Below are positions 42,186 to 45,522 of a stretch of 64,000 nucleotides of DNA, piece after piece. The position numbers were made by a program, and so were the translations under genes. Under the pieces are notes generated by a model. That model was not told the DNA's origin and did no database searches. It saw nothing but the letters and a program-made list of their open reading frames with translations. The number at the start of each line of letters is the position of its first letter. The first letter of the stretch is position 1. Source of the stretch: Escherichia coli (GTDB taxonomy: Bacteria; Pseudomonadota; Gammaproteobacteria; Enterobacterales; Enterobacteriaceae); the NCBI RefSeq assembly GCF_003334405.1, contig NZ_QOWM01000008.1. The stretch is one strand, 5' to 3'.

Positions 42186-42935
42186 TTAAATGTCAACGAC
42201 GTGAACGGTGAGTTTACTGTGCTCAAGATGCATCAGATCGCTGGCGCGTATTTTCGAATCGGTAATCACGCGATTGAATCGCTCAACGGGACCGATGGAG
42301 TATGAATGTACAGCACCAAATTTCGAGCTGTCAGTCAGGACTATCGCTTCGCACTCTTTTTCCAGCACGGCATTGACCACATCGGTACGCATCATATCGC
42401 GACCGGTAAATCCAGTTTCAGGTTGCCAGCCATCAATACCAATAAATGCTTTGCTGAAATGCACCTGTTGGATGCACTGGCGTGTCAAAGGGCCAACCAT
42501 ACTTTCGCTTTTTTTCTGATACACGCCACCGAGCAAAATAACTTCACAAGGCGCGTCTTTCAGCAAATGCGCGATGTAGCTGCTGACCGTGATGATAGTG
42601 ACATTTTTCTTCTGCTCGCCCAGAGTCCGGGCGAGTAGGGCATTGCTGCTGCCATTTTCGATAAAGATGGTTTCGCCCGGTTGAACCAGCGACGCGGCAA
42701 ACTCGGCGAGTTCACGCTTCAGCGTATAGTTGCTCATCATACGGGTTTCGACGTCATCACTATCAAGCGAAACAGCAAAGCCATGTGCACGGCGGAGGTA
42801 ACTCAGTTTTTCGAGTGTGTTGAGATCCTGGCGAATGGTAACTTCAGAAACTCCAGTGGCTTTTGCCAGATCGGTTACGCTAACCTGACCCTGGTCAATG
42901 ACCATCTGTAGAATAGTTTGTTGTCGGGAATTCAT
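42186..42935 (-). CDS. yciT: DeoR-family transcriptional regulator YciT
   Basis: 249-aa ORF; N-terminal HTH. Confidence 0.92.
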
Positions 42936-43024
42936 CGCTGTAATTCTTATAACGTTATAATACTTAATAAAAAAATACTGACGCGCCGGGCATCCTCAAA
43001 TAGGAAAACCTGAAGGCACGATTG

Positions 43025-43198
43025 TTAAATCTCCCACGGTGCCTTCGGGATGTCTGGCGTAGATTCAGCAACCTGGCGCAAGAGTTCTGCTTTAAGTATC
43101 TCGAGATTATGGATCGCAGAGTGGTAATCGCCTGCCACAAGGATATCTAACACAATATCAATACGTTCGGCAACGCGCTGGGCATCAAATTCAGACAT
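43025..43198 (-). CDS. yciZ: Small protein YciZ (57 aa)
   Basis: ORF 43025-43207; second ATG (43196-43198) has AAGGA at good spacing. Confidence 0.75.
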
Positions 43199-43345
43199 CA
43201 AGGACATCCTTATAGCAAAAGGGGGAAAATGAATAATGCAAAAATTGCCGCTAAAAGAGAAGTGTTTAACAGCAACGGCTAATTATCATCCAGGAATACG
43301 ATATATAATGACGGGATATAGCGCTAAGTATATATATTCATCTAC

Positions 43346-45331
43346 TTATGCGCGCTTCAGATAGCGTTTATACCAGCGTTCGAAGGCGACGGCGGGCATC
43401 GGTTTGGCAAACAAAAATCCTTGCCGCTCATTGATCCCGTTCTTGGTTAAAAAAGCATCTTCCTTTGCACTCTCTACACCTTCGGCGATCACCTGAAGAT
43501 TCAATGCCTGGGCCACAGCGACGATCGCCCGGACCAGTGACTGCGAGACAGGTTGTTTGTGAATATCTCGAACAAAAACCTGGTCAAGTTTGATGGCATC
43601 GATCGGAAAGCGCGCCAGTTGCGAAAGTGAAGAGTAGCCGGTACCAAAATCATCCAGATGCACTTGCGCACCTAGTTGGCTAAATTGTTGAATAACAGAC
43701 AGTGCCAGTTCATCATTCTCAATCAGACAACTCTCTGTCAGTTCAACATCTATAGGGCAGTATTCAAAATTGAGTTCCTGGAGAACCTGTTTCAGGGCGG
43801 TGAAAATGGTTTGATCGGCGAGCTGACGTGCAGAAATATTTACCGCCACTCGCAGGTTTATGCCTTTATCCCGCCACTTTGCCACCTGGCGTACGACATC
43901 GAGAATCACCCAACGGCCTAAAGGCACAATTAGCCCTGACTCTTCGGCGTAGGAAATGAAGTCCAACGGTGGAATCAACCCACGTTCAGGTGACTGCCAA
44001 CGTACTAGTGCTTCCAGACTGCGCACTTCGCCACGCCAGGTGATTTTCGGTTGATAGTGAATAACCAACTGATCGTTTTCCAGTGCTTTACGCAAGTTGG
44101 TATCCAGCCAGAGATATTCAAATACCCGTTGATTCATTTCTGGGGTAAAAACGCAAAATTGTCCTCGTCCGCCTTCCTTCGCTGTGTACATTGCTGTGTC
44201 GGCGTGACGAATAATAGCCGTGCTGTCTGAACCATGTTCGGGAGAGAGTGCAATACCTACTGAACAGCTGGTATAAACTTCAATTAAACCAATGCGAAAG
44301 GGGAGCCGTAAGCGGGTCAAAATTCGTGATGCCATTGCTTCCAGCGCGCTTTGTGAGGTGTTGGATGCCAGTACCAGAAACTCATCCCCACCTGGACGCG
44401 CCAACACCTGGTCATGTTCGAGACAGCTTAAAATAGCCAATGACACGTCGCGTAATAACTGGTCACCAAACAAATGCCCATAGGCGTCGTTGACCTTTTT
44501 GAAATTATCCAAATCAAGATACACAACCCCAACTTTATTGTTATCTGCATGATTAATAGCGTGATCGATTAAATCCTGCATTGCGTTACGATTCGGCAGT
44601 CCGGTGATACTGTCGGTATTTGCCAGAATACGCAGTCGCTCCTGAGCGCGGCGCTCTTCGGTAATGTCGGTGCCGGAACAGATTAAAAAAATCTCGTTTT
44701 TGCCACTGCCGCTGTGGACAAATTTATTGCGAAACAGAAACAGCCGCTGGCCTTTACATGTTGGTATCCACAGTTCGACTTCATATGCATTGCCGCTTCG
44801 AAAAAATACACGGTTATTGCGCCTGGATGCCGCAGCTTCACGACGGCTCATAAACAGTTTAAACACGCTTTGCCCAATGACGTCGTGTTCTTTCAACCCT
44901 GTGTAATCTTCACATAACCGATTGAAGCGTTGGATATTCCCCCGGCTGTCGAGAATCACTATTGCGGAATGTGCTTCAGAAACTACCTGCTCAGCAAAGG
45001 AAAGCCCGTGTGATAAATCACGAGCAACCGCCGGTGTGTCATGCCATGCAGACGCGTTGCCAGCCCATTCCCGTTTATTGATTTTTCGTCCTACCAGATG
45101 CACAGAAAGATCGCTTTCATCGACGGTCAGACTCATCATCAGGCTGGAGGTGATGACCGTCATTTCCCTGATGCGAGCAGCCTGTTCGGCAGATAACTGC
45201 AATGTACGATCAGGTTCTGTGGTTTCGGTGGTAGAAAAGCGCAAAACATCGCTGCTTTCCGTCAACCGCCAGTATGGATTGTGCGATCCGAGAAAGTTGT
45301 ACAACGTTGTGGACTCCCTAACGGTTTTCAT
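43346..45331 (-). CDS. pdeR: c-di-GMP phosphodiesterase PdeR (YciR/Gmr; PAS-GGDEF-EAL)
   Basis: 661-aa ORF; GGDEF and EAL motifs present. Confidence 0.94.
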   Translation of the reverse strand: MKTVRESTTLYNFLGSHNPYWRLTESSDVLRFSTTETTEPDRTLQLSAEQAARIREMTVITSSLMMSLTVDESDLSVHLVGRKINKREWAGNASAWHDTPAVARDLSHGLSFAEQVVSEAHSAIVILDSRGNIQRFNRLCEDYTGLKEHDVIGQSVFKLFMSRREAAASRRNNRVFFRSGNAYEVELWIPTCKGQRLFLFRNKFVHSGSGKNEIFLICSGTDITEERRAQERLRILANTDSITGLPNRNAMQDLIDHAINHADNNKVGVVYLDLDNFKKVNDAYGHLFGDQLLRDVSLAILSCLEHDQVLARPGGDEFLVLASNTSQSALEAMASRILTRLRLPFRIGLIEVYTSCSVGIALSPEHGSDSTAIIRHADTAMYTAKEGGRGQFCVFTPEMNQRVFEYLWLDTNLRKALENDQLVIHYQPKITWRGEVRSLEALVRWQSPERGLIPPLDFISYAEESGLIVPLGRWVILDVVRQVAKWRDKGINLRVAVNISARQLADQTIFTALKQVLQELNFEYCPIDVELTESCLIENDELALSVIQQFSQLGAQVHLDDFGTGYSSLSQLARFPIDAIKLDQVFVRDIHKQPVSQSLVRAIVAVAQALNLQVIAEGVESAKEDAFLTKNGINERQGFLFAKPMPAVAFERWYKRYLKRA

Positions 45332-45522
45332 GATGCATATCCTCCGGTTAACAGCGGAGTCCGCGGTTAAATAAAAGGAACAACATGACTTACATGAAAT
45401 TAACGGCGGCTAAACGCATTGTTTTTTTTTATATATTTATTTGTAATCCAGTTTTGGAAAAACGCCAGTTTTCAAACGAAAGTCAGTTAAAAAATCTGCC
45501 TGGATATAACGAAGGTAGAGCG

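Follow-up and report, generated by a model that had tools for sequence, protein, structure and literature searches.

Does the strong Shine-Dalgarno (SD)-like run between the yciZ and pdeR genes of Escherichia coli belong to a real small gene, or do the short reading frames behind it merely happen to lie there? The stretch of E. coli DNA analysed, here called the window, comprises 64,000 nucleotides. In the region concerned yciT/deoT (42186-42935), yciZ (43025..43198), pdeR (43346-45331) and rnb (45568-47502) are all encoded on the minus strand. The yciZ gene was identified with the NCBIfam model NF010179 (126 bits), pdeR from the open reading frame (ORF) list and the MG1655 annotation, and the two flanking genes from the ORF list and MG1655 names. 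On the plus strand, GGGGG at 43221-43225, embedded in aaagggggaaa (43218-43228), precedes an ATG at 43229 that opens 17 codons (43229..43282, stop at 43280-43282) and, out of frame with it, an ATG at 43236 that opens 42 codons followed by a TAG stop (43236..43364, stop at 43362-43364). The longer ORF diverges from yciZ, its start codon lying 37 nt from that of yciZ, and its 3' end overlaps the last codons and the stop of pdeR in antisense over 19 nt (43346..43364, both strands). A preliminary description of this DNA had located the G-run, both ATG codons and the pdeR overlap exactly, and had considered the small ORFs probably spurious.

The 42-codon ORF is ymiD, already known as an E. coli gene for a small protein. 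At the locus the window matches E. coli K-12 MG1655 with 100% identity, the MG1655 ymiD coding sequence (WP_211180493.1) maps to window positions 43236-43364 (+), and the 42-residue translation is exactly that of 'Protein YmiD' (YMID_ECOLI) in UniProt, with the name YmiD likewise used by NCBI. With hmmscan, residues 1-42 aligned to positions 1-42 of the 42-position Pfam model PF23497 'YmiD' (E 2e-35, 120.9 bits). In sequence, length, position and strand the ORF is identical to the K-12 gene, and no difference was found. A megablast search with region 43100-43450 gave matches in 5423 of 5426 complete E. coli genomes, the locus being present at 95% identity or more in 5420 of them, and of 40 genomes taken from all parts of the ranked matches, 39 carry the annotation 'ymiD: protein YmiD' at the matching site. 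YmiD matched no NCBIfam model, PADLOC returned no result for it, and no PDB sequence matched below E 0.8. The predicted protein (4.9 kDa) is basic (pI 9.8), not hydrophobic, and contains 6 Tyr in 42 residues, and the gene has a GC content of 36% vs about 48% for the neighbouring genes. An AlphaFold2 model of YmiD, built with 13 Escherichia variants, was of low confidence (pLDDT 61, pTM 0.27).

Several published data sets bear on the expression of ymiD. RiboReport (PMC8921622) lists ymiD as one of 31 E. coli small ORFs validated by western blot, and credits these 31 ORFs to the start-site profiling study of Weaver et al. 2019 (mBio). According to the preprint of that study, Onc112 and retapamulin were used to hold ribosomes at start codons and the candidates were then SPA-tagged on the chromosome, whereupon 36 of the first 38 tagged candidates were detected. 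The translation and start-site evidence for ymiD itself is thus second-hand, since it reaches us from Weaver et al. 2019 by way of RiboReport (PMC8921622), which also gives a very low coverage of ymiD in standard Ribo-seq (5 RPF). The 42-residue protein was identified by top-down mass spectrometry (MS) in a proteomics paper from 2025 (PMC12529367), where the identification missed the criterion of five consecutive ions and was compared with a synthetic peptide, and where PRM found YmiD in a single ethanol-stressed replicate, under the quantitation limit; the MS support is consequently weak. Finally, ExcludonFinder (PMC12288877) classified ymiD-pdeR as a convergent and yciZ-ymiD as a divergent excludon, and counted pdeR-ymiD-yciZ among the only three noncontiguous operons present in at least 50% of the MG1655 RNA-seq samples, both strands being transcribed as judged by RNA-seq coverage alone.

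On this literature, ymiD is translated in K-12 from ATG 43236, and the verdict of a probably spurious ORF fails for the 42-codon frame, which is annotated as ymiD and for which tagging (as credited by RiboReport), MS and RNA-seq have been reported. Ribosome profiling, which the preliminary description had proposed as a check, was the appropriate test for the ORF. The absence of plus-strand transcription or ribosome occupancy had been named in the preliminary description as the observation that would speak against the ORF; the RNA-seq coverage shows transcription of both strands, and start-site profiling is reported through RiboReport. The best overall explanation, to which we assign a probability of roughly 85%, is that the ORF is the known gene ymiD, a young ORF confined to Escherichia with an SD-led start at ATG 43236.

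The distribution of ymiD suggests a recent origin. Protein searches returned relatives of YmiD from Escherichia and Shigella alone; among the full-length ones that of E. marmotae is the most distant (74% identity), and in the marmotae-like lineage (L005) the gene is intact with 42 codons. In three other Escherichia lineages, L002, L006 (Escherichia sp. E1V33) and L007 (E. whittamii), ymiD stops after 21-22 codons, while in L004 (Escherichia sp. MOD1-EC7003) and L008 (E. albertii) pdeR has been lost and ymiD along with it. The L002-type truncation was also considered as a common E. coli allele and rejected, as no complete E. coli genome covers at least 80% of the L002 sequence. Conservation in relatives, proposed as a check in the preliminary description, holds for the 42-codon frame in E. 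coli and the marmotae-like lineage and breaks down elsewhere, where the frame is truncated, lost or replaced by an unrelated ORF. Judged from these comparisons, ymiD appears to be a young ORF found solely in Escherichia.

It appears to be put together from three pieces of DNA. Codons 1-12 are the reverse strand of a conserved element upstream of yciZ, codons 13-36 a fast-changing AT-rich spacer, and codons 37-42 the antisense of the pdeR end. For codons 13-36, comparison of E. coli with the marmotae-like lineage gave a pN/pS of 0.94 in the ymiD frame vs 0.68 and 0.89 in the two alternative frames, values that come from a small sample and have low power. Ten E. coli alleles, sampled over the range of identity, carry 2 synonymous and 6 missense changes, and the same sample includes one nonsense allele (a RefSeq pseudogene) and one in-frame deletion of 21 nt. 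Codons 13-36 appear to evolve neutrally, with no selection on the protein detectable at this level, and the purifying selection and conserved ORF length that mark a functional small protein were not observed for ymiD.

The conserved element beneath the first third of the gene is in our view the most interesting side observation of the analysis. Starting from an alignment of the YciZ protein, 80 loci were fetched from one-genome-per-species contigs, representing about 20 genus names of Enterobacteriaceae and a few mislabelled records, and the DNA upstream of yciZ was aligned across genera (81 sequences). Two blocks, block A (ATGATGCA.AAA on the plus strand, 43233..43244) and block B (AAAAGAGAAG on the plus strand, 43253..43262), are near-invariant over the roughly 20 genera and lie at a constant distance from each other. 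Together they cover ymiD codons 1-12, block B overlying codons 6-9. Read in the direction of yciZ, they give TTCTCT-17 bp-CATCAT across genera, with CATTAT in E. coli, and contain a putative -35 box (TTCTCT, 43261-43256) in block B and a putative -10 box (CATTAT, 43238-43233) in block A. In a position weight matrix (PWM) scan no minus-strand promoter candidate scored above TTCTCT-17-CATTAT, itself a weak one, for which transcription is predicted to start at about 43226. The two-block element is thus probably the yciZ promoter and, if the -10 assignment is right, the ATG of ymiD is merely the leading CAT of the yciZ -10 box read in reverse complement.

The element was also considered as the coding sequence of a cross-genus peptide beginning at the conserved ATG and containing KEKGK, a candidate that was rejected. 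Outside Escherichia, at about 70 loci of other genera, the conserved ATG opens ORFs that vary between 5 and 56 codons and are unrelated past 'MQK..xKEK', several genera have a stop at codon 10 of the ymiD frame, and the third codon positions are invariant. Invariant third positions, stops at codon 10 and ORF lengths of 5-56 codons together imply a constraint on the DNA and not on a peptide.

Other signals were scarce. A scan for consensus promoters and terminators gave nothing on either strand of the intergenic region 43199-43345, and the PWM scan returned weak candidates only, none of them a credible plus-strand promoter for ymiD; no site resembling an intrinsic terminator was found between pdeR and yciZ. 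A permissive Rfam scan of 42500-44000 produced only a chance match (bxd_5, 15.7 bits vs a gathering score of 50), RNA folding was on both strands no better than that of shuffled sequences (z-scores +1.1 and -0.4), and the only repeats at the locus were short palindromes.

The G-run itself fits a ribosome-binding site well in the window, and poorly among relatives. The AGGGGG run (43220..43225, +) is predicted, from its duplex energy with the 16S anti-SD ACCUCCUUA and from its spacing, to be the ribosome-binding site of ymiD. The computed energy of this duplex is -10.7 kcal/mol, which exceeds the values for pdeR (-9.5 kcal/mol) and yciZ (-6.0 kcal/mol) and bears out the strong ribosome-binding-site-like signal that had drawn attention to the locus. 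Exact matching in about 5417 complete E. coli records revealed four alleles of the run with distinct predicted SD strengths: the GGGGG allele of the window in about 2770 records (about 51%), a GTGG allele one nucleotide shorter in about 1552 (about 29%; -3.3 kcal/mol), GGGGA in about 359 (about 7%; -7.8 kcal/mol) and GTGGG in about 39 (less than 1%; -4.7 kcal/mol). Among orthologues the run is missing in the marmotae-like, E1V33 and whittamii lineages, and the marmotae-like lineage keeps the full ymiD ORF yet reaches only -1.8 kcal/mol. As about 29% of E. coli genomes have only a weak SD and the marmotae-like lineage has none, the SD cannot be essential for whatever role ymiD has, and no constraint on the ribosome-binding site is visible in these alignments. 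Seen from yciZ, the run consists of C and lies 23-27 nt ahead of the start codon, which probably places it within the yciZ 5' UTR. The earlier suggestion that the G-run may simply belong to the divergent yciZ promoter region was therefore right in its geometry, but the run is not a constrained part of the promoter, as its conservation does not extend beyond E. coli and even there it is polymorphic.

In the mechanism that we propose, a plus-strand transcript would begin within the yciZ 5' region, or a short way upstream of it, and run antisense into the 3' end of pdeR. AGGGGG (43220-43225) would recruit ribosomes, initiation would take place 9-10 nt downstream at ATG 43236, and the product would be a 4.9-kDa basic, Tyr-rich, non-membrane peptide.

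Whether such a peptide is what selection acts upon is a separate matter. The strongest rival, which we hold to be nearly as probable as its opposite, accepts that ymiD is translated but regards the peptide as a by-product, the selected feature, if any, being antisense transcription in an excludon or noncontiguous operon and the ORF a transient proto-gene. As part of the same reading, the plus-strand RNA over the 5' end of yciZ and the 3' end of pdeR may modulate read-through from pdeR to yciZ, or the stability of the mRNA. This reading agrees with the pN/pS of about 1 in the unique part of ymiD, which resembles that of the other frames, with the 2 synonymous against 6 missense changes, the nonsense allele and the 21-nt deletion among the ten E. 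coli alleles, with three further Escherichia lineages in which just 21-22 codons of the gene remain, with the polymorphic SD and with the poor AlphaFold2 model. It is also in line with the cataloguing of the locus as convergent excludon, divergent excludon and noncontiguous operon by ExcludonFinder (PMC12288877) and with the passage from pdeR to yciZ without an intrinsic terminator. Against it, the 42-codon frame is open in 8 of the 10 sampled E. coli alleles and in the marmotae-like lineage has stayed intact through 21 substitutions in an AT-rich stretch, and the excludon listing is derived from RNA-seq coverage only. An antisense excludon role is thus a reasonable rival to a functional peptide, and one that is compatible with translation. 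If 'spurious' is taken to mean translated without a selected function, the word describes this same reading, and in that sense it may apply.

A bolder version, which we think unlikely, would make ymiD a gene observed in the course of its de novo birth. Its start would be the reverse complement of the yciZ -10 box and its tail the antisense of pdeR, its transcript or peptide would tune the read-through of pdeR into yciZ-deoT, and the natural SD alleles (GGGGG vs GTGG, with an about 1000-fold difference in predicted affinity) would set a strain-specific curli c-di-GMP switch. The product of pdeR, a key regulator of biofilm formation, serves this switch as its trigger phosphodiesterase.

The geometry of the SD bears on the choice between the two start codons. 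Full pairing of AGGGGG with the anti-SD leaves a spacing of 9-10 nt to ATG 43236 and just 2-3 nt to ATG 43229, and an SD spacing of 2-3 nt lies under the usual functional minimum. The canonical arrangement, with anti-SD complementarity about 5-10 nt ahead of the start, is accordingly found for ATG 43236 and not for ATG 43229, so that the SD geometry favours the start of the 42-codon ORF. We infer from the sequence that the G-run would act as the working SD of ymiD and that ribosomes pass over ATG 43229, which lies too near the run.

The alternative, that the 17-codon ORF is translated beside or in place of ymiD, perhaps as an overlapping uORF that competes with ymiD initiation, seems distinctly improbable to us. 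It draws on a weaker SD register (-6.6 kcal/mol), a partial pairing that gives ATG 43229 a spacing of 4 nt, and on the retention of the ATG, the 17 codons and the TAA in E. coli and two other Escherichia lineages, L002 and L005 (L003 being an E. coli contig). This seeming conservation is, however, accounted for by the conserved DNA blocks beneath the ORF, and the full pairing leaves ATG 43229 with the short spacing given above. Moreover, E. whittamii has ATA and E. coli DSM 101139 has AGG in place of the ATG, Escherichia sp. E1V33 lacks the stop, and the 17-codon ORF is annotated in none of the sampled genomes. In one supplementary file of Stringer et al. 2021 neither the 17-codon nor the 42-codon ORF appears, by coordinate or by peptide, and for the shorter ORF this absence counts against the alternative. 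With no support for it, the 17-codon ORF is probably not the main initiation site.

How often would a signal of this kind arise by chance? Considering both strands of the 64-kb window, ymiD is the sole ATG ORF of 17-100 codons with an SD this strong at a spacing of 4-11 nt. In second-order Markov sequences of the same composition as the window, the expectation per 64 kb is 0.75 ± 0.83 such ORFs of at least 42 codons and 1.95 ± 1.43 of at least 17 codons. As random sequence yields comparable numbers, the SD and ORF signal is by itself not beyond chance and the literature decides. The weakest rival, in which both ORFs are chance frames beside a chance G-run upstream of yciZ and nothing is translated, can appeal to about one such SD-plus-ORF being expected per 64 kb of random sequence of this composition, to the lack of detectable protein-level conservation in the ymiD frame and to the very low standard Ribo-seq coverage (RiboReport, PMC8921622), but we consider it highly improbable given the western-blot validation of chromosomally tagged ymiD that RiboReport (PMC8921622) credits to Weaver et al. 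2019, the detection of YmiD by MS (PMC12529367), the plus-strand transcription at ymiD (PMC12288877) and the curated entries in RefSeq, UniProt and Pfam.

The assignment to ymiD adds little as a discovery, as RefSeq, UniProt and Pfam already contain the gene and translation has been reported. New here are the restriction to Escherichia, the overlap with the two-block element, the neutral middle part and the polymorphic G-run. The locus is also useful as a calibration case, in which a reader of the sequence alone spotted a real small gene and then dismissed it, and the chance estimate explains why the sequence alone could not decide. Taken together, ymiD offers a tidy and testable case of a young ORF that is translated but whose function is doubtful, situated beside pdeR.

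The known E. coli small ORFs closest in kind are those of the Weaver et al. 2019 set. Its members, for example yqgG, yqhJ, yoaM and yibX, likewise have 50 codons or fewer and a narrow taxonomic range, were found by start-site profiling and confirmed by SPA tags on the chromosome, and, like ymiD, overlap a gene on the opposite strand. For ymiD the overlap is confined to the last 19 nt of pdeR, and its 5' third lies on the yciZ upstream element. With de novo or taxonomically restricted proto-genes ymiD shares the confinement to one genus, the AT-rich composition, a pN/pS of about 1 and the absence from homologous DNA of sister genera, and, as in proto-genes, polymorphism extends to its presence, its truncation and its expression signals. 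Unlike proto-genes that emerge from purely neutral spacer, it lies partly on constrained DNA, namely the yciZ blocks and the 3' end of pdeR. As for excludons and noncontiguous operons, ymiD is convergent with pdeR by overlap of the coding sequences and divergent from yciZ (37 nt), and no terminator separates pdeR from yciZ. Mutually exclusive expression and processing by RNase III are features of excludons, the classification of the ymiD locus being made from RNA-seq coverage alone. The layout of an excludon, with neighbours on opposite strands and transcripts that are forced to overlap, is found here, the SDs of ymiD and yciZ both lying within the same 37 nt.

A two-block element is found upstream of yciZ on the minus strand, that is, the yciZ strand (window 43233-43244 and 43253-43262), and comparison across about 20 genera of Enterobacteriaceae showed it to be almost invariant. 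At loci L009-L081 of this comparison it is located approximately 37-65 nt upstream of yciZ, and it is retained also in genera where pdeR does not adjoin yciZ. Read along the yciZ strand, CTTCTCTTTTG is followed by a spacer and then by TGCATCAT, the spacer being fixed in length and variable in sequence. The two blocks supply the hexamers TTCTCT-17-CATCAT, and the element resembles a promoter with non-consensus hexamers. No match to Rfam was obtained at this position.

The putative -35 block of the element is spanned by an imperfect 12-bp hairpin (43243-43279, minus strand), with arms GUUGCUGUUAAA and UUUUAGCGGCAA, which is present in the minimum free energy and centroid folds alike. Since the stem includes G-U pairs, the hairpin can form only on the minus-strand RNA. 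Folding of the whole region around it was not better than that of shuffled sequences (z -0.4).

The same strand contains a candidate ORF of 21 codons with a TTG start (43275-43210), which would encode a very hydrophobic product (2.3); 11 nt lie between its end and the start of yciZ. Three further lineages of Escherichia (L002; L005, marmotae-like; L007, E. whittamii) share its start and stop, and it is not retained in genera other than Escherichia. The candidate ORF is positioned upstream of the predicted yciZ transcription start, and would thus occur only on transcripts reading through from pdeR.

Within Escherichia, pdeR is absent beside yciZ in two species, represented by Escherichia sp. 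MOD1-EC7003 (L004, positions ~1300-1470 of the locus) and E. albertii NBRC 107761 (L008, upstream of position 986). In the former, the sequence switches a few bases past the ymiD ATG to a match of window ~45270-45400, the surroundings of the pdeR start; some 2 kb, with both pdeR and ymiD, has been cleanly deleted. In E. albertii, AT-rich and unrelated DNA is found in place of pdeR. Natural alleles with loss or alteration of ymiD were also observed in E. coli. In strain 19SZHZ713Rt (L089) codon 11 is changed from TTA to TAA, and RefSeq labels the gene a pseudogene with an internal stop, while in WP3-W18-ESBL-07 (L091) an in-frame deletion of 21 nt leaves a 35-aa product annotated as "hypothetical protein".

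Typical enterobacterial pdeR-yciZ loci were encountered in the records of an 'Actinomycetes bacterium' MAG (L003, JAEWQO010000093.1) and of 'Chryseobacterium sp. 18061' (L050, CACSKA010000006.1), both of which look contaminated or mislabelled. The ymiD, yciZ and pdeR C-terminal protein sequences of the former are 100% identical to those of E. coli, and in the sampled DNA the G-run is the sole difference. In a UniRef entry the yciZ product is named 'protein YciZ/DeoL', which suggests a recent renaming by which yciZ is tied to deoT (yciT), the regulator encoded downstream; no paper on this renaming was found in the literature searched.

A previous genomic-SELEX study of the RpoS holoenzyme reported a class D peak with an intensity of 48.2, which falls within gmr/pdeR and has yciZ and rnb as its flanking genes (PMC5493296). 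By our own coordinate conversion, the peak (U00096.2 coordinate 1342872) corresponds to approximately window 43437, within about 200 bp of ymiD and the region upstream of yciZ. A sigma-S promoter that drives either yciZ or the antisense transcript may underlie this peak.
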